Shown in pieces: positions 3,506 through 49,140 of a stretch of 64,000 bases of DNA; position 1 is the first letter of the stretch; every line of letters starts with the position of its first letter. The stretch is taken from positions 8,223 through 72,222 of the IMG/VR virus record IMGVR_UViG_3300045988_134667, one strand, 5' to 3'. Position numbers and translations under genes: made by a program. Under the pieces are notes generated by a model. That model was not told where the DNA came from. It ran no database searches and saw nothing but the letters and a program-made list of their open reading frames with translations. This DNA comes from a virus.

Positions 3506-4453
3506 TTAATTTTCCTCCTTTGTTATGAAGTCATATTTATCAAATACTCGTATATCACGAATCTTTTCCAAACATGACTCATCATTATTCTTTTTGTAAG
3601 TTGCTTCATATTTGTGATTTTCTTGCAAGACATATGCATAGACTTGTTGGATATCTTCTTCAGAATATTTAAAATCTTTATTTTTACAGATTTGATTATA
3701 CATTTGAGCAAGTCGTCTTTTGGCATTAGCCTTCCTTATATTATTCTCCACATATTTATATGAATCTTTATATTTTCGTTGGCTAATAGCAAAAGCGTCA
3801 ATATACAACTGATCTTCAGGTCTGCCGTATACATTTGGTAAACGAGTTATTTCACCTGAATCTTTATTGATCATAAAATCATTCTGCCTATAAATATAAA
3901 TAAGACCAATGCTTTCTAATATTTTGTTGTAATCAATAATGGATCTTTCTGAAATACCTGAAAGTTGAGATATGTATTCTATAGTAAGATTACCAACAAC
4001 TCGACATTTGTGCTGATATGCGTCTATATATACATCAATCGTTGAACTGATAGTTCCAATAAGGAAGATAAAGTATTTCAACAATAGAAGAGTATTAACA
4101 TCCTTTAGCCGACATATCGTTAAAATCTCTTCGTAGGTAATAATTGTAAAATATTCACCTTCTTCTGTGATAAAAAGATCAGAACAATCTATTATGTCAA
4201 ATTTACCTTTTGATTTAACTCGCTTTATAATACCTTGATCAATTAACTCATCGTAGCCAGTTTTCAAACCAGTATAAAATCTACGTGGATAGTCTAATGA
4301 TTTTGTAAGCTGATATGCTAGTATTTCACAAGATGTACATATTTCTTTTACATCTTCATTAGGCAAAAGGGTTTTTATGGCACAATAGGCTGCTAAGCCA
4401 TATATAGAAAGCTTGTCTGATTTATATATTTTTTCACTTAGCCATAATTGCAT
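3506..4453 (-). CDS. putative DNA-binding or replication-initiation-like protein (winged-helix-like segment)
   Basis: 315-aa ORF with SD GGAAGTG. The segment IEYISQLSGISERSIIDYNKILESIGLI resembles a wHTH. It lies next to iteron-like and repeat boxes. The functional call is inference. Confidence 0.5.
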   Translation of the reverse strand: MQLWLSEKIYKSDKLSIYGLAAYCAIKTLLPNEDVKEICTSCEILAYQLTKSLDYPRRFYTGLKTGYDELIDQGIIKRVKSKGKFDIIDCSDLFITEEGEYFTIITYEEILTICRLKDVNTLLLLKYFIFLIGTISSTIDVYIDAYQHKCRVVGNLTIEYISQLSGISERSIIDYNKILESIGLIYIYRQNDFMINKDSGEITRLPNVYGRPEDQLYIDAFAISQRKYKDSYKYVENNIRKANAKRRLAQMYNQICKNKDFKYSEEDIQQVYAYVLQENHKYEATYKKNNDESCLEKIRDIRVFDKYDFITKEEN

Positions 4454-4615: not shown

Positions 4616-4695
4616 GCAGATAGTTCATTTACTATGATATTCAATTACAATGATTTTAATTAAACTCTTATTTTTTGTTTTACTCTTTCATTTAA

Positions 4696-5121
4696 TTATT
4701 CTCCTTCTGAATTACAATCTGAATTACAATTTTGTTCTAAATCAACATACTTCTCTTTGTAAATATCATCTACAAAGAATACTGGTAATTTATCATGATA
4801 CATTTCATAAAATTCTTCACCTGATATACTTATCCAAAAATTATTTCCTGTTTGTCTTTGTTTCTGTAATACGTCAATTTCTTTCTGATATTTACTATTT
4901 TTAATTATTCCTCCAATTTTTCCACAGATAGTACAATAACTGCTTAATGAAGTATGTATACGTTCTTTTTCTTCTTGAGTAAATGCGTTACTTTTAAAAT
5001 TCCATTTATATTGAATCAAACATTCTTCATAATGATGTTTGTGCTTTGATTTGCGGTTACTCTTTGAGATATTACTTTCTGTTGATTTGAGATATTTTGG
5101 TATTTCATTTTCTTGTATCAT
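4696..5121 (-). CDS. hypothetical protein
   Basis: ORF-track ORF trimmed to the internal ATG (MIQENEIPKY) preceded by a strong SD AGGAGG plus 8 nt. Confidence 0.45.
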   Translation of the reverse strand: MIQENEIPKYLKSTESNISKSNRKSKHKHHYEECLIQYKWNFKSNAFTQEEKERIHTSLSSYCTICGKIGGIIKNSKYQKEIDVLQKQRQTGNNFWISISGEEFYEMYHDKLPVFFVDDIYKEKYVDLEQNCNSDCNSEGE

Positions 5122-8207: not shown

Positions 8208-8276
8208 AAATGATAGCACTTGAAAAAAGTCAAATAATATGCTATCTTTGAATATATAAAAGGAGGCAAAAATTAT

Positions 8277-15967: not shown

Positions 15968-16606
15968 ATGGGACTTTTATATTTAAAGAATGAAGAGAAA
16001 CGGTTGTACAGTGCATACGGATTAACCGTATATGGCAGACAGGATAGATATGAATGGACTATCTACAACAATAAACCAGATGAAAATGTATATACATCAT
16101 TACGGATTGAGCGAAACGGAGAGGAAATCTACAGCAGAAATCTTGGTAATAGATGTATCTTTGAAGAGAATTTCAACAGAACGATTGATAACTTCTTATG
16201 GTGGATTGATAAAGATAATCCTGATGCATATGACATTGATAATGCAGTTATTAAGGATCTGTGTGAAACAAACTCATTATTTAATCATCTGATTGGAAAT
16301 CGTAAGCGAAAAGAACAGACAGAAGCCAATGAGAAAGCAAGGGTTGAAGCAATCAGAGAAGAGGAACAGAGACAGATTGATTTGATCAAGCAGTATTGTG
16401 AAAAGAAAAATCTGTTATTCAAACAGTATTATGAAAAGGTTTATCTGATTAAGCTACACAATAAAGATGTAAGGCAGATGATTGAAAATGCAGACAATAA
16501 GCAGTTTGAAGGATTGAGAGATTTTATGAATGAACATCCTGATAACAAAGAGGCTGTGATTGTAATGAATGGAAACATTGAAGATATAGTAAGGCAGATA
16601 GCATAG
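15968..16606 (+). CDS. hypothetical protein
   Basis: ORF track trimmed to an ATG (MGLLYLK) with SD AAGGAGAG. The upstream ATG lies in a terminator-like hairpin. Confidence 0.55.
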   Translation: MGLLYLKNEEKRLYSAYGLTVYGRQDRYEWTIYNNKPDENVYTSLRIERNGEEIYSRNLGNRCIFEENFNRTIDNFLWWIDKDNPDAYDIDNAVIKDLCETNSLFNHLIGNRKRKEQTEANEKARVEAIREEEQRQIDLIKQYCEKKNLLFKQYYEKVYLIKLHNKDVRQMIENADNKQFEGLRDFMNEHPDNKEAVIVMNGNIEDIVRQIA

Positions 16607-29043: not shown

Positions 29044-29325
29044 GTGGAATATAGTATGGAAAATTATAAAATTAGTTATAATGGTGATACTCAAATTAAA
29101 AATATTCACCATATAGGTGTTGATTATAATGGAAATTATTATAGCGTGATTTTCGGAGAATATGTAAATGGAGGATTCTTTAGTATTCCGAACTGGAATT
29201 GCGGTGGTGAGTTAGCTGGGCTTAGTGATGTGTTTTGGAATACAGAATCTATTCAGAAATCATTAAAAAGTAAAAGAGCAGCTAAAGCTATTGCAAAAGC
29301 GATAGAAGATTACACAAAGGAGTGA
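29044..29325 (+). CDS. hypothetical protein
   Basis: ORF track. Confidence 0.5.
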   Translation: MEYSMENYKISYNGDTQIKNIHHIGVDYNGNYYSVIFGEYVNGGFFSIPNWNCGGELAGLSDVFWNTESIQKSLKSKRAAKAIAKAIEDYTKE

Positions 29326-30326
29326 TGATTATGTGTTACAAAATAGAAGTACAAAACAAAAATGCTGAAAAGCTTAATAGGAAGTTGGATGAGTTAAACG
29401 CACCACAGTTTTTAAGAGATTACTTGAATGAGTTGGAAAGCAAGAACGGAGCGTTAAATTATCTAGTGGCAATTAAAGATTTTTTACAGTGGTTGATTGA
29501 AAGCAATATTATTAATAAGAAATCAATTTCTGAAATAGAAGTTTCTGATTTTAGTGACTTGCGACCACAAAATATTAGTTCATACCTTAGATACAAGGAA
29601 ACAAATGGAATGTCGCCAACCACAACGGAGACAAGAAAAAATATCATTAAAAGTTTCATACAGGATATTTATTCATACAGAGAATGTTTATTAAGAGAAA
29701 TTTATAGCAACATAGAAGATTTTTACAAAATGATTAAATATAAAGGAATCCCATCTGGTAATAACTTGACTAAAAAACTTCCAACAGAAAAGCAGCTTAA
29801 TGATATGGAAGAGAAAATAATGTGGAAGAAAGATGAATGTGTGAGGAATAGGAATATTGCTATCTTTCGAGTTTTAAGAGGAACTGGAATAAGAGAATCT
29901 GAACTTGCCGGTTTGGATTTATCAGATTTACATTTAGATGAAGAAATGCCATATATTACTATTCTTGGTAAAGGTGTGTACAGAGAAATGCAAAACAGAA
30001 CTGTATATCTTAGCGGATCTGCTCTGAAGGCATTAAGAGAATGGTTAGAATACAGAAGTACCTTAGATAATATTGTAGATACGGAAGCAGTTTTTGTAAA
30101 TAAAAACGGTACACGTACAACAGAAAGAAATATCAAACAGATATTTGAAAATTATGGCAATGGAATTACACCACATATGATGAGACATTATTATGCTAGT
30201 GTAATGAATCAGAATGGGAATCTTGCATTTGTACAACAGCAGCTTGGGCATAGTAGTGTGAATACAACGGTTAATAATTATGCAAACGGAGCTGTTGGAA
30301 TGAAAGAAAAATTAATGGAGATGTGA
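29325..30326 (+). CDS. int: tyrosine recombinase / phage integrase
   Basis: C-terminal catalytic signature RGTGIRESEL ... HMMRHYYAS ... LGHSSVNTTVNNY (R, H-x-x-R and the Tyr nucleophile). Confidence 0.8.
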   Translation: MIMCYKIEVQNKNAEKLNRKLDELNAPQFLRDYLNELESKNGALNYLVAIKDFLQWLIESNIINKKSISEIEVSDFSDLRPQNISSYLRYKETNGMSPTTTETRKNIIKSFIQDIYSYRECLLREIYSNIEDFYKMIKYKGIPSGNNLTKKLPTEKQLNDMEEKIMWKKDECVRNRNIAIFRVLRGTGIRESELAGLDLSDLHLDEEMPYITILGKGVYREMQNRTVYLSGSALKALREWLEYRSTLDNIVDTEAVFVNKNGTRTTERNIKQIFENYGNGITPHMMRHYYASVMNQNGNLAFVQQQLGHSSVNTTVNNYANGAVGMKEKLMEM

Positions 30327-30911: not shown

Positions 30912-31277
30912 ATGACTGTAAACTTTGGGTATGTTATGATGATTGACTTTGGAGAAGATAAAATTAATTCAGTTCAAGTAGGAGTAAGACCGGGCGTAAT
31001 CATTCAGAACGACATCGGGAACAAATATTCTCCGACCTCAATAGCTGTTCCTTTGACCAGTGAAATCAAGAAATTAAATATGCCATGTCATAAAGTCCTA
31101 CATATGAACGAACAAAATGGCTTGACGGAAGATTCAATGGTGCTTGGAGAGCAAGTAAGGGTAATTGACAAAAATTCGATATTATACAAAATGGGCACTT
31201 TAAACGATGGTGAATGTGATCTTGTCGTTAAAGCATATTTTGCAAATATACCTAGAAGGAGGGTTAATTGTGGCTGA
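30912..31277 (+). CDS. MazF/PemK-family endoribonuclease toxin-like protein
   Basis: GYVMMIDFGEDKINSVQVGVRPGVIIQNDIGNKYSPTSIAVPLTSEI. RPGVIIQND is the PemK/MazF fold signature. SD AAAGGAGG. Confidence 0.65.
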   Translation: MTVNFGYVMMIDFGEDKINSVQVGVRPGVIIQNDIGNKYSPTSIAVPLTSEIKKLNMPCHKVLHMNEQNGLTEDSMVLGEQVRVIDKNSILYKMGTLNDGECDLVVKAYFANIPRRRVNCG

Positions 31278-31572
31278 ATATAAGAGTATTACAAAGAAAG
31301 AATTGACAGAATTACTTGATAAATATCCAGAAGATAAAGAGTTTAGTATTATCCAAACTCAACTTGGAATGACAATTATTCCATTAGGAGAGCGGATAGC
31401 AAATAAAGTAGATATTTTGGAAATTGCGAATGCAGCAAAAACAATGATTTATTCAGAGAATAAATTCATGTCACAAGTTGATATGCACAGCGTAAGGCAA
31501 GATATATTTAATATAGAAAGAAATGGAATAATGGATACGTTGTTGCTACCTAGATTTTCTAATAAAGAATAA
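31270..31572 (+). CDS. hypothetical protein co-transcribed with the MazF-like gene (possible cognate partner)
   Basis: GTG start with SD AGGAGGG; overlaps the toxin gene by 8 nt. Confidence 0.45.
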   Translation: MAEYKSITKKELTELLDKYPEDKEFSIIQTQLGMTIIPLGERIANKVDILEIANAAKTMIYSENKFMSQVDMHSVRQDIFNIERNGIMDTLLLPRFSNKE

Positions 31573-31653
31573 CTTTAGTGTCCTATAATTAGGACACCAT
31601 ACATATTAGAATGAAAACATGAACAAGAAATCGAACAAGTGTTTGTTTTATAC

Positions 31654-31682
31654 TTGACACAAACATATGTTTGGACTATGAT
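31654..31682 (+). promoter_or_regulatory. promoter TTGACA, 17 bp spacer, TATGAT, with the 14-bp palindrome CAAACATATGTTTG in the spacer; likely drives the tRNA cluster
   Basis: -35 at 31654-31659 and -10 at 31677-31682; a perfect palindromic operator sits inside the spacer. Confidence 0.55.
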
Positions 31683-31881
31683 TATTATTGTAAGAGAAAT
31701 AATGGAAATAAAAAACAGTCCGAATGACGTGGCTGCAACCACATATGTCATTCAGACTGTAACTCAACCAACCAAGATTAAGTCATTACATATTTTGGCA
31801 TAATTTTCCAGTTATGTCAAGTTCAGTATGGCTAAAATCATAGCCTGTTTCCAATATTTTATCAAAATTTAATAATTTTAT

Positions 31882-31954
31882 AGGGCATTCGCCAAGTGGT
31901 AAGGCACAGGATTTTGATTCCTGCATTACATCAGTTCGAATCTGATATGCCCTG
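31882..31954 (+). tRNA. tRNA-Gln (anticodon UUG)
   Basis: Cloverleaf with acceptor AGGGCAT/ATGCCCT, D-arm GCCAAGTGGTAAGGC, anticodon stem CAGGA/TCCTG with loop TTTTGAT, and T-loop TTCGAAT. Architecture is nearly identical to E. coli tRNA-Gln. Confidence 0.8.
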
Positions 31955-32113
31955 CTTTGTGACATTCCACCCGGTATGTTACAGAACGCAAGTGATTTCC
32001 TTGTAAGAGCAAAATGTGTAGTTGCTATAGTTCTACCATAGTTTAATCCACTAACGGATTACAAGCTGATACTATAGAACTTCCTGATAAACTTGCGATA
32101 GTGTCAGCTACTT

Positions 32114-32187
32114 GGATCATTAGCACAATTGGTTAGTGCATTCGGCTCATAACCGAAAGGCTCAGAGTTCAAGTCTCTGATGATCCA
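32114..32187 (+). tRNA. tRNA-Met or initiator/Ile-lysidine type (anticodon CAU)
   Basis: Acceptor GGATCAT/ATGATCC, D-arm GCACAATTGGTTAGTGC, anticodon stem TTCGG/CCGAA with loop CTCATAA, T-arm CAGAGTTCAAGTCTCTG. Confidence 0.8.
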
Positions 32188-32212
32188 TTGCTAAATCAAA
32201 CAAAGAGAGGAG

Positions 32213-32829
32213 ATGATTACGTTGGCACAATATGTAATTACAGACGGTTCTCGTTGGATTATGAGAAATCGTAATGGTAAATATGTTCCAACATCTTGCG
32301 AGGCATTGGCTGATACATTTTCAAATAAAGCAGCCAATAATCTATATAATAACTCGCTACCCAAAGCCTTGAAATCAGTATTTCATATCCAGAAAATTGA
32401 TACCCCACCAGATAATGTAAAGCAGATTACACAATCAGAAGTGGAAAATAATACCGAAAAAGTTATGGTTGCTGAAAATATCTAGAAATGGATTGACAAA
32501 ATAACTGATCTTAATGGATTAGCAACAGATGCATTACATAGAAAAGAAGAGCTGTGTGAAGAACTTAGCTTTGTAGACAGGGAATTATCTGATATCAATC
32601 ATTATATAGAATTTTGTAATCTTAATGCAGCACAAGGATGGAAGGCATATAAGATGATAAAGGAACGGAGAATAAAAAGAAGAAGTATCAAAAATGAGAT
32701 ACAAATTCTTAACATTATTCTTGATAAAAAGATTTCTGACACAGTTACAAATGAGATTTTGGAATCCATGTCGAAAATGGATAAGCGTACATATGAACCA
32801 CGAGTAATGAACGAGTTGTTTGATTTGTA
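32213..32829 (+). CDS. paralog of the 25057..25650 product, interrupted by an in-frame TAG at 32483-32485 (pseudogene or amber read-through)
   Basis: Track ORF 32213..32485 ends in TAG. The same frame continues without further stops to TAA at 32827-32829, with no start codon until a late ATG. Homology to the intact paralog spans both sides of the TAG. Confidence 0.5.
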
Positions 32830-32845
32830 AAGGAAGGATATACAT

Positions 32846-33025
32846 ATGGTGATTTGTAAAAGGTGTTATACACCTATGGTTGGTGTTATGTCATTCTCAA
32901 AGAACAAGCATGAGAAATTCTGTCGTTGTCCGAAGTGTTGTTCAGAGACACGGCATATAAAAATCAATGATAACGAGTTGAGTTTTGGAGAGATATTACA
33001 TAGAGAAATCAAGAAGGGAAAGTAA
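32846..33025 (+). CDS. zinc-ribbon small protein (59 aa)
   Basis: SD AAGGAAGGA; MVICKRCYTPM...CRCPKCC. Confidence 0.5.
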   Translation: MVICKRCYTPMVGVMSFSKNKHEKFCRCPKCCSETRHIKINDNELSFGEILHREIKKGK

Positions 33026-33032
33026 TTACATA

Positions 33033-33593
33033 ATGGAAATACAACAAATATTGGAATGGTACTGTGATAATGAAATGTATCAGTTAAAAAAGATGTGTTA
33101 CCCAATGTTGATAAAGATTGGAGGTATATCTGACAAAGATTATGACGACTTTTACAGTATCGCTTTAAGTGTATTATCAGACACCGCATTAAGATTTGAT
33201 TCAGAAAAAGAAATAGATTTTGATTCATTCTTAGCCAGTAACATTAAGCGAAAGTTTAAAACCGAGATTCGTGATCGTAATCGTGAAAAACGTATTCCTG
33301 CTAAGAAAATTGAGAGTACAAGTAATCTTGTTACAGAAGATGGACTGGAACTTGGAGAAACCATTCCATCAAAGTTTGATACATATGAAACTGCTTGTGA
33401 GTATTTGTTTGAAGGTACTAAGATCCAAAGATATTTGGATAAGTTATCATATACACAACGCAAAATCGTTTCGCTATTATCTAATGGATATAAAGCAAAA
33501 GAAATCAGAGAATTATTACATATGGATAGCAAACAATATTCTAATAATCTTGCAGCTATTCAAGCATATGAAAATGTAAAAATTTTAATGTAA
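33033..33593 (+). CDS. sigma-70-family RNA polymerase sigma factor (phage-encoded, ECF/late-sigma-like)
   Basis: Region-2-like YDDFYSIALSVLSDTALRFD and region-4 HTH LSYTQRKIVSLLSNGYKAKEIRELL. Confidence 0.7.
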   Translation: MEIQQILEWYCDNEMYQLKKMCYPMLIKIGGISDKDYDDFYSIALSVLSDTALRFDSEKEIDFDSFLASNIKRKFKTEIRDRNREKRIPAKKIESTSNLVTEDGLELGETIPSKFDTYETACEYLFEGTKIQRYLDKLSYTQRKIVSLLSNGYKAKEIRELLHMDSKQYSNNLAAIQAYENVKILM

Positions 33594-39662: not shown

Positions 39663-40439
39663 TTGTTAGAAGATTTTGAATTAAAGAAAAATATGTCAAA
39701 AAAATTTTTTAATGGTTCAAAATGGGTTTCTAAAAAATCTGGTGAGTTTGAAATTATAGGTAATTTAAATAAGCCAATTTATGATAAAAAGGGTGTTCCA
39801 TCATATCCGTACTATTTGTGTAGATTTAATGACGGTACAATTGTGATATCAAATAGAAACGTTATTAAAAGTGGTGGAACACACAACCCTAATACTCCTA
39901 CTGTATGTGGTGTTGGTTATCTTGGTATTGGAAAATGGAAAGCGACACAAAATGGAGAAAATACAAAGGAGTATACGTTATGGTCTGGAATGCTATATAG
40001 ATGTTACTGCAATTCGAAATACAGGTATAATTTTAAAACATATGAGAAATGCACCGTAGATTCATCGTGGCATAATTTTCAAACATTCTGCGAAGATATT
40101 ACATCTTTAACAAATTATCAACATTGGAAAAATGAAGAAAATTGGCAACTTGATAAAGATAGTATCGTTCATGGAAATACAATATATAGCAAGGAAACTT
40201 GTATGTTTTTACCACTGATTGATAATGTAAAAGAAATGAATGATAGAACACGAAAAAATCGGCTGACGGGTTTAACATATGTTGCATACTCACCAGATGG
40301 TTTAAGGATAGAATTTAAAAATCAGACTCAATTTGCAAAAGAAAATAATTTAGAAGGTTCATCAATTTGGAAATGTTTAAATGGATCATTAAATACACAT
40401 AAAGGTTGGCGTTTTAAGATTAAAAATAAAGGAGAATAA
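39663..40439 (+). CDS. putative DNA-binding or endonuclease-associated protein (W/Y-rich WSGMLYRCY...Y..Y...C.V...W..F..F motif)
   Basis: TTG start with SD AGGAGA plus 7 nt. The motif resembles those in phage HNH/AP2-type proteins; low confidence. Confidence 0.45.
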   Translation: MLEDFELKKNMSKKFFNGSKWVSKKSGEFEIIGNLNKPIYDKKGVPSYPYYLCRFNDGTIVISNRNVIKSGGTHNPNTPTVCGVGYLGIGKWKATQNGENTKEYTLWSGMLYRCYCNSKYRYNFKTYEKCTVDSSWHNFQTFCEDITSLTNYQHWKNEENWQLDKDSIVHGNTIYSKETCMFLPLIDNVKEMNDRTRKNRLTGLTYVAYSPDGLRIEFKNQTQFAKENNLEGSSIWKCLNGSLNTHKGWRFKIKNKGE

Positions 40440-47780: not shown

Positions 47781-49140
47781 TACAATAGAGAGTCAGTTAT
47801 TGACTCTCTATAACAGAGGAGGTGAAACAATATAAATAAAGCGGAAAGACATGTAATAAACAAAAACCATCCAATGTATTTAGCTTGTGATAACTTATGT
47901 TTTCTGGCAAAGAATATGTATAATTTATGCAATTATACAATTCGCCAAGAATTCTTTGAGACAAAGAAAGTTAAGAAGTATGGTGACTTAAATAAGGAAC
48001 TAAAACATACAGATGCTTTTATGGAACTTGGATCAAATGCAGCACAGATGGTTACAAAAGCATTGTGTAAGTCTTGGAAATCATTTCTTGTATCAGTTAA
48101 AGATTATACTATTCATCCAGAAAAGTATTTGGGAAAACCTAAGATACCAGCTTATAAAAAGAAAGACGGTAGATTTGTTTGTACTTTAACTAATATGCAG
48201 ACTAAAGTGAAAGATGGTTATTTGTATTTTGCTTTTAAGAGAATGAAAGAGTATAACAATTTAATTCTCACAAAAGTTACAGGTCATCATTTGTCTACGA
48301 GAATTGTTCCAAAAGGTGGTTGTTATATTATTGAAATTGTTTATGACGATGAAAAGCAATGTAAAAGTGAATTGGATAGAAACAGAATTGCTTCGATTGA
48401 TTTAGGTGTAAATAACTTTGTAACAATGGTAAATAACATAGGAGAATCTTCTATTGTTATAAATGGCAAAGGAATTAAATCTTATAATCAGTATTGGAAT
48501 AAAAAGGTTTCTAAATTAAGAAGTATTGCGAAAACCGTAAATGGATCTGATTGGACTAAACAGATGCAGAGCCTTACAAATAAAAGATATTTCAAGATGG
48601 AGTATTTCATGCATTGTGCGAGCAAATGGATTGTTAGTTATTGTGTGAAACATAATATTGGAACACTTGTTATTGGTAAGAATGATGGTTGGAAACAGAA
48701 AACAAATATGTGTAAAATTACAAATCAGACTTTTACTCAAATACCATACGAAAGTTTTCTTGAAAAGCTTGGATATAAGTGTGAAGAAACTGGTATAGAT
48801 TTGATTAAAACAGAAGAAGCTTATACTTCAGGAACTTCTTTCTTAGACAATGAGTTACCTGTTAAAGAAAATTATAACAAGTCAAGAAGAGTTTATAGAG
48901 GATTATTTAAAAGCAACAACGGAGAATATATAAATGCCGATGTTAATGGTGCATTTCAAATAATGCGTAAAGTATTCTCAAATGTAAAAGCAGATGAGAT
49001 AGTGGGTGCATATTCACACCCTGTAATTATAAATTTGTAATTGTAAATGGAAAATAAAAAGCCAATGAATGCCAAGATTGATTCAATGCATGAGAAAAAT
49101 CTGTTTAAATTACAGCCAATGCCAAGTTTTGTGTATCAGG
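47781..49140 (+). mobile_element. IS200/IS605-family element carrying tnpB only (IS1341-like); right boundary approximate
   Basis: Perfect subterminal hairpin ATAGAGAGTCA-gttat-TGACTCTCTAT at 47785-47811, immediately upstream of tnpB. Repeated GCCAATG(A)ATGCCAAG segments lie downstream of tnpB, in the expected right-end / guide-RNA region. Confidence 0.55.
47874..49040 (+). CDS. tnpB: TnpB (IS605 OrfB-type RuvC-like RNA-guided nuclease family)
   Basis: RuvC-I IASIDLGVNNF, RuvC-II IGKNDGW, RuvC-III ADVNGAFQIMRKV. The usual CxxC zinc finger appears to be replaced. Confidence 0.7.
   Translation: MYLACDNLCFLAKNMYNLCNYTIRQEFFETKKVKKYGDLNKELKHTDAFMELGSNAAQMVTKALCKSWKSFLVSVKDYTIHPEKYLGKPKIPAYKKKDGRFVCTLTNMQTKVKDGYLYFAFKRMKEYNNLILTKVTGHHLSTRIVPKGGCYIIEIVYDDEKQCKSELDRNRIASIDLGVNNFVTMVNNIGESSIVINGKGIKSYNQYWNKKVSKLRSIAKTVNGSDWTKQMQSLTNKRYFKMEYFMHCASKWIVSYCVKHNIGTLVIGKNDGWKQKTNMCKITNQTFTQIPYESFLEKLGYKCEETGIDLIKTEEAYTSGTSFLDNELPVKENYNKSRRVYRGLFKSNNGEYINADVNGAFQIMRKVFSNVKADEIVGAYSHPVIINL

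Follow-up and report, generated by a model that had tools for sequence, protein, structure and literature searches.

A conserved pseudoknotted RNA element between two tRNA genes in a clade of human-gut phages

The 159 nucleotides (nt) that separate a tRNA-Gln(UUG) gene from a tRNA gene with a CAU anticodon, in a stretch of viral DNA of 64,000 nt (hereafter the window; positions 8,223 to 72,222 of IMG/VR record IMGVR_UViG_3300045988_134667), form a structured non-coding RNA with a pseudoknotted fold that is conserved among related phages. From the pattern of change between lineages, the element is under purifying selection for a structure of its own, which is not that of a tRNA. We lean towards reading it as a stable RNA of a new family that would be excised from a tRNA precursor and whose core would act in trans. 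The window belongs to a clade of phages of 32% GC and about 80-190 kb, from human-gut viromes and metagenomes, one structural protein of which is ∼60% identical to proteins of Bacillus and Clostridioides myoviruses. An initial annotation had described the spacer as rich in hairpins and not foldable as a tRNA, and had proposed it as a place to look for a degenerate or unusual suppressor tRNA, a processing signal or a tRNA remnant. All coordinates given below are positions in the window, on the plus strand unless stated otherwise.

Fold and covariation of the spacer RNA

On the plus strand the 159-nt spacer is predicted to fold at -40.6 kcal/mol, compared with a mean of -29.2 for shuffled sequences (z = -3.17), and none of 200 shuffles was as stable; folding of the minus strand was unremarkable (z = -0.96). 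The description of the spacer as hairpin-rich was therefore sound, and so was the remark that it does not fold as a tRNA, since no tRNA model matches it and its covarying fold is not a cloverleaf. The core of the element is 108 nt long (31956-32063) and comprises a hairpin P1, a hairpin P2, an H-type pseudoknot made of the helices S1 and S2, and a hairpin P4 (Table 1).

The evidence for this fold is comparative. A covariance model, R1, was built from 17 sequences and holds P1, P2, S1 and P4 but not S2; it scores 114.5 bits on 31956-32063 of the window. Three MAFFT alignments (A1-A3) mis-registered P1, the S2 bulge and an insertion in P2, so the covariation test was made on a model-derived alignment (A4) of 38 distinct sequences, and S2 was judged from pairs that lie outside the model. 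Across these 38 sequences, standard pairs occupy 94.7% of the pair cells, a share that drops to 30-42% once the 3′ partners are shifted by 1-3 columns, and a change on both sides was seen in 16 of 29 pairs, as against 1-5 in the shifted controls. Not one shuffle matched the observed covariation score, and RNAalifold independently recovered P1, P2, S1 and P4. The S2 pairs cannot have been fitted, because they are absent from the model that made the alignment; the helix is nevertheless 100% paired, and all three of its counted outer pairs change on both sides. Its two strands read TGTGTAG/CTACCAT, ACAATAG/CTATTGT, CTATAAG/CTTATAG, CTGTAAG/CTTATGG or CTGTGAG/CTCACGG according to lineage, and metagenome variants include an S2 without the bulge (AUGGUAG/CUACCAU, in locus L186) and a wholly different one (ACAAUAG/CUAUUGU, in L086). 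The two helices are thus interleaved, both carry compensatory change, and their loop lengths are compatible with one another, as expected of an H-type pseudoknot. On general grounds, loops of these lengths (Table 1) are sterically feasible.

Stems that differ between lineages through compensatory changes alternate with invariant blocks (AGAACGCA, UGUAAG, AGUUCU, AG and CUAA), and the junctions are more conserved than the stems. The P1 loop of 10 nt (31966-31975) has a conserved ACCC inside it. The 6-nt loop of P4 conforms to NCUAAM in 38 of 38 distinct sequences, as ACUAAC, GCUAAC, ACUAAA or GCUAAA. P2 is ∼25 nt longer in the lineage of locus L028. The hairpin TAATCC-ACTAAC-GGATTA with CTA in a 6-nt loop, to which the initial annotation had drawn attention, is P4 (32044-32061). 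The pairing between two copies of CTATAG proposed alongside it does not correspond to structure conserved in the relatives, which have neither copy: the first (32025-32030) lies in the 3′ strand of S1 and in loop L3 of the pseudoknot, and the second (32072-32077) in the 5′ strand of the terminal hairpin P5, paired with 32098-32109.

Other pairings and a reading frame were considered and set aside. A helix of AGAAC (31983-31987) with GUUCU (32030-32034) has two near-invariant sides, the changes that do occur (G to U in L165 and L106, A to U in L028) are uncompensated, and GUUCU overlaps the covarying S2. Over 16 nt, the P4 hairpin (32045-32060) and the D arm of the next tRNA (32127-32142) show 81% complementarity (CACUAAC versus GUUAGUG). 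A pairing between the P4 loop and this D arm is not kept in the lineages with an ACUAAA loop, whose tRNA D loop differs, and is probably due to chance. An open reading frame of 21 codons, from ATG 31976 to TAG 32041, has no ribosome-binding site, and its start codon is absent in other lineages.

Table 1. Features of the tRNA-flanked RNA element and its surroundings (window coordinates)
Feature	Position	Strand	Description
Sigma-70-type promoter	31654-31682	+	TTGACA-17-TATGAT; 11 of 12 consensus positions
Palindrome	31659-31672		Perfect, 14 bp, CAAACATATGTTTG; within promoter spacer
Leader hairpin	31715-31760	+	14-nt arms, 93% complementary; between promoter and tRNA-Gln
tRNA-Gln(UUG)	31882-31954	+	Discriminator G31954, CCA not encoded; ARAGORN, Rfam
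Linker	31955-31957	+	CUU, 3 nt; YUA in most relatives; predicted RNase Z cut after 31954
P1 hairpin	31958-31983		TGTGACAT 31958-31965 with ATGTTACA 31976-31983; 6 of 8 pairs change on both sides
J1/2 junction	31984-31987		GAAC; within nearly invariant AGAACGCA
P2 hairpin	31988-32004		GCAAG 31988-31992 with CTTGT 32000-32004; two pairs switch between A-U and G-C
J2/3 junction	32005-32007		AAG; within invariant UGUAAG
H-type pseudoknot	32008-32039	+	S1 and S2 interleaved
S1	32008-32012, 32022-32026		5 bp, AGCAA with TTGCT; 100% paired; pair types AU/UA/CG and GC/AU
S2	32014-32021, 32033-32039		7 bp, ATGTGTAG (T32017 bulged) with CTACCAT; 100% paired
Pseudoknot loops			L1, A32013 (1 nt); L2, 0 nt; L3, ATAGTT 32027-32032 (6 nt)
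Invariant AG and 2-nt linker	32040-32043
P4 hairpin	32044-32061		TAATCC/ACTAAC/GGATTA; 32044-32049 with 32056-32061; inner pairs switch U-A/C-G and C-G/U-A
P5 terminal hairpin	32064-32109		12-bp stem, 22-nt loop; -14.6 kcal/mol, z = -3.83; ends 4 nt before next tRNA
tRNA, anticodon CAU	32114-32187	+	Elongator Met, or Ile2 if C modified to lysidine; predicted RNase P cut before 32114
205-codon gene	32213-32830	+	Followed by sigma-factor gene; broken by TAG 32483-32485 in the window

Distribution among relatives and the 3′ border

Within the clade, gaps of four size classes separate tRNA-Gln from the tRNA that follows: 2-3 nt, 36 nt, 154-164 nt (in which case the sequence is homologous to the window spacer) and 253-256 nt. 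R1 finds the element in about 110 fetched loci. In ∼190 locus-level occurrences tRNA-Gln(UUG) precedes the element and a tRNA, or in the L028 lineage a tRNA-like handle, comes after it. In every complete occurrence, and in every lineage, P1 begins 2-4 nt past the discriminator, and the tRNA-Gln(UUG) in question has no CCA encoded.

The part of the element that follows the core varies by lineage. Other lineages have hairpins of unrelated sequence in the place of P5; such terminal hairpins end 2-5 nt before the next tRNA in four lineages, and one of them shows compensatory change. In the lineage with a gap of 255 nt, a diverged second copy of the core abuts the first (24.7 bits with R1). This copy keeps P1, P2, S1, S2 and P4, with covariation of its own, while its junctions differ (AAGC replaces AGAACGCA, and GUAAG is missing) and ACUUAC forms the loop of its P4. 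The L028 lineage lacks a downstream tRNA, and the core runs instead into a small tRNA-like handle (L028 3292-3350), which consists of an acceptor-like stem, an arm whose loop contains GG, and a canonical T arm (AAGG-UUCAACU-CCUU), with no anticodon arm; both ARAGORN and Rfam miss this handle and that of L187. Compensatory changes are seen in the handle (GAGGCATC/GATGCCTC versus GAGACATC/GATGTCTC), and L187 (minus strand, about 2670-2740) has a handle of the same shape and unrelated sequence. Since the shape is kept through compensatory or unrelated sequence, a tRNA-like processing site at the 3′ border looks to be what selection keeps.

Beyond the clade the searches were negative. R1 had no match in the more distant phages that share the sigma-factor operon, blastn of the spacer region against 50,697 GenBank phage records matched only the tRNAs, and the element was not found among 72,556 plasmids. 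A degenerate pattern scan of 185,579 species genomes returned one match, due to chance. None of the 4227 families of Rfam 15 matched the spacer, either in the window (31600-32400, E ≤ 10) or in four other lineages (E ≤ 5); beyond the two tRNAs, the same scan of 31600-32400 returned only chance matches outside the spacer. The family is therefore new to Rfam 15; a large screen of IMG/VR reported 10,006 unnamed candidate RNAs (PMC10690425), and the family may be represented there.

Suppressor tRNA, TAG codons and tRNA remnants

The leading suggestion made for this spacer was an unconventional suppressor tRNA that would read UAG by means of the CUA in the loop at 32050-32055. We consider this extremely improbable. 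It is true that CUA is conserved in the P4 loop of the first copy, and that one real in-frame TAG, at a position where all relatives encode Gln, occurs 430 nt downstream. The metazoan-mitochondrial mode of ARAGORN moreover calls a tRNA, 'mtRNA-Gly(acc)', at 32000-32066. However, this is the only call that ARAGORN makes in the spacer, which stayed empty in the standard, relaxed (-ps, -ps70/80) and intron modes, and no Rfam tRNA match was found there at E ≤ 10. The P4 loop has 6 nt rather than 7, with A or G where U33 should stand, no acceptor stem joins the ends of the core, a T arm is lacking, and the covarying helices form a pseudoknot rather than a cloverleaf. In the second copy the loop ACUUAC stands in place of CUA. 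The ACC 'anticodon' of the mitochondrial call lies in a paired strand of S2 and is TAT, ATT or CAC in other lineages, and we take the call as an artefact of a permissive mode on the strength of these comparisons. Its 'acceptor' helix, UGUAA (32001-32005) with UUACA (32059-32063), competes with P2 and P4 and is absent in the L028 lineage. ARAGORN in relaxed tmRNA mode found 0 genes.

The suppressor idea had been supported by several supposed in-frame TAG codons elsewhere in the window, and only a single case, at 32483 in the 205-codon gene, withstood inspection; each of the others ends a gene, after which a new one begins in the same frame. At 32483 the window has TAG, and 31 relatives have CAG (24) or CAA (7), the gene being intact in all of them. 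The TAGs at 16604, 19928, 20167 and 15599 are stop codons for which relatives have either TAG or TAA, so that TAG behaves as a normal stop here, and most long open reading frames have no internal TAG. Recoding of TAG is ruled out by this combination of a lone in-frame TAG, conserved stops and long frames mostly free of TAG, and, as judged from the genome comparison, the phage of the window does not recode it. Because the 205-codon gene is intact in relatives and the other TAGs are stops, the TAG at 32483 is a single amber mutation, from CAG, or a sequence error, not a sign of a changed code. The amber codon lies just 3′ of the tRNA-Gln(UUG) gene, which is not a suppressor. These results remove a false lead, as they leave neither a suppressor tRNA nor TAG recoding to be followed up and identify a mitochondrial-mode tRNA call in such a spacer as an artefact.

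We find it hardly credible that the spacer is the decaying remnant of one or two tRNA genes, or a set of chance hairpins in AT-rich DNA, without function. A length of 159 nt does amount to about two tRNAs, and more distant relatives have extra tRNAs (Ile-UAU and Lys-UUU) between Gln and Met. Decay would not explain why five helices are maintained across lineages by compensatory changes, why the junctions are more conserved than the stems, why the spacer has no similarity to tRNA models, or why a duplicated copy is structurally maintained as well; selection on a non-tRNA structure contradicts the remnant proposed earlier.

Transcription unit, proposed processing and genomic context

The ARAGORN search of the 64-kb window returned two tRNAs and no more, tRNA-Gln(ttg) (31882-31955) and tRNA-Met(cat) (32113-32188), and Rfam agrees (RF00005, 58.7 and 71.8 bits, respectively, with a gathering score of 29). 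Both had been recognized in the initial annotation, as had a promoter near the consensus with a palindrome, which we also recover (Table 1). This promoter is, by its sequence and position, probably the start of the transcription unit. The relative L006 has the same promoter and palindrome, though the tRNA cassette is absent there, and it also has a comparable hairpin 3′ of the promoter. The 205-codon gene is conserved in relatives with or without the RNA element. No terminator-like site was detected on the plus strand in 31200-33100, and P5 is followed by ACUUGG, with no U tract.

In the reading we favour, one precursor would run from the promoter through the leader, tRNA-Gln, the element, tRNA(CAU) and the 205-aa gene to the sigma-factor gene. 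The RNase Z of the host would cut it after G31954, which is expected from a tRNA-Gln without an encoded CCA followed by YUW. Work on B. subtilis indicates that CCA-less tRNAs of Firmicutes are substrates of RNase Z and that U residues downstream favour the cut. RNase P would cut before G32114, and the two cuts would release an RNA of ∼159 nt, in which 3 nt would precede P1 and 4 nt would follow P5. Terminal hairpins protect RNAs from 5′ and 3′ exonucleases in Firmicutes, and P1 and P5 may shield the 5′ and 3′ ends, respectively, of the released RNA. We favour the proposal that the freed core would then act in trans, its fold serving to bind a protein or a ligand. The suggestion of a processing signal made in the initial annotation is compatible with excision at the tRNA borders, and to that extent it stands. 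What the data support directly is the fold, its conservation, its constant place, with a tRNA before it and a tRNA or tRNA-like structure after it, and the presence of hairpins at both ends.

Several points weigh against a trans-acting stable RNA. The excision by RNases, the stability and the action in trans are each deduced from sequence. All sequences come from a single clade of related gut phages, with about 6-8 lineages, and the conservation of the unpaired junctions may partly reflect this shallow divergence. The element is dispensable, as close relatives have a Gln-Met spacer of 2 nt or 36 nt, or no tRNA cassette at all, before the same 205-aa and sigma-factor genes. Within 4 kb on either side no gene co-varies with the element, and a nearby protein partner was accordingly discarded: phages that lack the element still have the integrase, the MazF-like gene, the 205-aa gene and the sigma factor, just as phages that carry it do. 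Processing alone does not account for why the element is always linked to tRNA-Gln; common descent of the cassette may be the reason.

A rather unlikely alternative is that the element has no function as a free RNA and acts only in cis, either as a folding insulator or stability element for the flanking tRNAs or as a shield of the downstream transcript from 5′-to-3′ decay after the RNase Z cut. Its place inside a tRNA-mRNA co-transcript upstream of a conserved operon, the stable hairpins at both of its borders and its dispensability in close relatives would fit such a role. However, a 2-nt spacer suffices for relatives to process the same tRNA pair, and an insulator is therefore not needed. 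For protection a simple hairpin would be enough, whereas the 108-nt core, whose pseudoknot covaries, whose junctions are invariant and whose 6-nt loop is conserved, speaks for a defined three-dimensional shape. The intervening tRNA would in any case be excised, which would uncouple the element from the mRNA.

Catalysis has a precedent in the same setting. Theta ribozymes, which are minimal ribozymes resembling that of hepatitis delta virus (HDV), occur in human-gut Caudoviricetes just 3′ of CCA-less tRNAs, are pseudoknotted and are thought to define the tRNA's 3′ end (PMC10879173). Gut phages, the position 3′ of a CCA-less tRNA and a pseudoknot are common to both cases. A self-cleaving ribozyme of a new class that would cut at its own 5′ end and so make the 3′ end of tRNA-Gln, as has been proposed for theta ribozymes in gut phages, would account for the constant start of the element near the discriminator, for its compact pseudoknot with many conserved unpaired nucleotides (AGAAC, UAAG, AUAGUU, AG and CUAA) and for tandem units that abut directly. 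We nevertheless regard such a ribozyme as quite doubtful. No Rfam 15 family matched the spacer in the five lineages scanned, and this includes the hammerhead, twister, twister-sister, pistol, hatchet and hairpin ribozymes, which are presumably represented there. Theta ribozymes have a nested HDV double pseudoknot (P1-P2-P3-P1.1-P4; PMC10879173) with P2 5′ and P3 between the P1 strands; they carry G1 where they cleave, and their catalytic C is in J4/2. An HDV-like fold of this kind is geometrically impossible here, as the 10 nt between the P1 strands cannot hold P2 and P3. P1 starts with U rather than G, and the discriminator is followed by YUWU, with no G1 beside the tRNA 3′ end. The second copy, furthermore, keeps the helices but not the junctions, which would be unusual for a catalytic core. 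Theta ribozymes are also much shorter than the 108-nt element.

The stable RNA that we favour finds its only close analogues in layout in the species 1 and species 2 stable RNAs of phage T4, encoded by rnaC and rnaD. These RNAs, of 139 and 119 nt, are structured and lie inside a phage tRNA cluster, with rnaD directly after tRNA-Arg and rnaC in tandem according to the record annotation, much as the window element adjoins tRNA genes of the same strand in a cluster. The end of T4 rnaC is a T-arm-like hairpin that an acceptor-like stem closes, much like the 3′ handle of the L028 lineage. The two T4 RNAs are stable, and their function is still unknown (PMC9697503). We detected no homology between the families (on the T4 region R1 gave 0.2 bits, and never more than 0.9), and the window element differs in belonging to a Firmicutes-type gut phage rather than a coliphage, in its flanking tRNA and in a pseudoknotted core that has no described counterpart in T4. 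Structured, stable RNAs that lie inside phage tRNA clusters are thus a known kind, of which the element would represent a new family, its stability here being a prediction. Clusters of this sort are usually read as a codon supply or as sets of anti-defence tRNAs; here one carries a passenger RNA with a well-supported fold. With this second, independent family, for which comparative data are rich, the function of such RNAs can be approached from a new side, and useful data include the presence or absence of the element between near-identical phages, the duplicated copy and the lineage in which the tRNA is replaced by a minimal handle. We give only a small chance to the core being a new class of catalytic or decoy RNA attached to a tRNA, that is, a ribozyme maturing the CCA-less tRNA-Gln or an RNA neutralizing a host factor such as a nuclease or defence protein. 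If true, this would suggest a function for RNAs of the rnaC/rnaD type.

Other known systems are more remote. In E. coli, the 3′ external transcribed spacer of glyW-cysT-leuZ and the internal transcribed spacer of metZWV are pieces of tRNA precursors that are released by processing nucleases and act in trans. They are short, largely unstructured, Hfq-dependent base-pairing sponges, whereas the element is long, pseudoknotted and found in a phage of Gram-positive type. In the tRNA-miRNA transcripts (TMERs) of MHV68 and in MALAT1/mascRNA, RNase P or RNase Z is brought in by a tRNA or tRNA-like structure and so sets the end of an adjacent non-coding RNA; these systems are eukaryotic, release microRNA hairpins or a long non-coding RNA, and have no homology to the element. 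With the amber suppressor tRNAs of recoded gut phages the element shares a tRNA-cluster context and a CUA loop, but it has no cloverleaf, its loop is of 6 nt, and the genome is not recoded.

The flanking tRNAs show some variation of their own. The tRNA(CAU) at 32114-32187 has a G1-C72 pair and is therefore not an initiator. Its anticodon varies in relatives (L063, L064, L070 and L084, at 3901-3976; L165 and L206): the homologous tRNA has AAU in eight fetched loci, and another lineage has a tRNA-Ile with a UAU anticodon at this position. The window tRNA(CAU) may, from its sequence, be a tRNA-Ile2 in which C34 is modified to read AUA. L039 (2703-2796) and L040 (2658-2751) have a 94-nt tRNA-Gln(UUG) with an extra arm of ∼24 nt in the variable region, which is unusual for tRNA-Gln. 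A second tRNA-Gln/tRNA-Met pair, with a gap of 2-3 nt, lies 3′ of the sigma-factor gene in L004, L005, L009, L010 and L025 (near 4640-4800); in L025 the acceptor stem of the element-linked tRNA-Gln is broken and the second pair is intact. L034-L037 have another spacer, of 90 nt, between tRNA-Ile(UAU) and tRNA-Lys(UUU) (for example L034 2689-2778). It has a closing stem of 11 bp and a minimum free energy of -18.7 kcal/mol (z = -1.5), with little sequence variation, and it may be another tRNA-flanked RNA.

Among the neighbouring genes, one for a tyrosine integrase (29322-30326) suggests a temperate or integrative lifestyle, yet the RNA motif was found in none of the 185,579 species genomes. A MazF/PemK-like toxin gene (30912-31277; Pfam 8.9e-18) lies just 5′ of the promoter and has homologues throughout the clade, regardless of the RNA element. 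Further downstream, the window encodes a protein with an I-HmuI-like homing endonuclease domain (39663-40439) and a TnpB-like protein with OrfB_IS605 and Cas12f1-like TNB domains (47874-49040).

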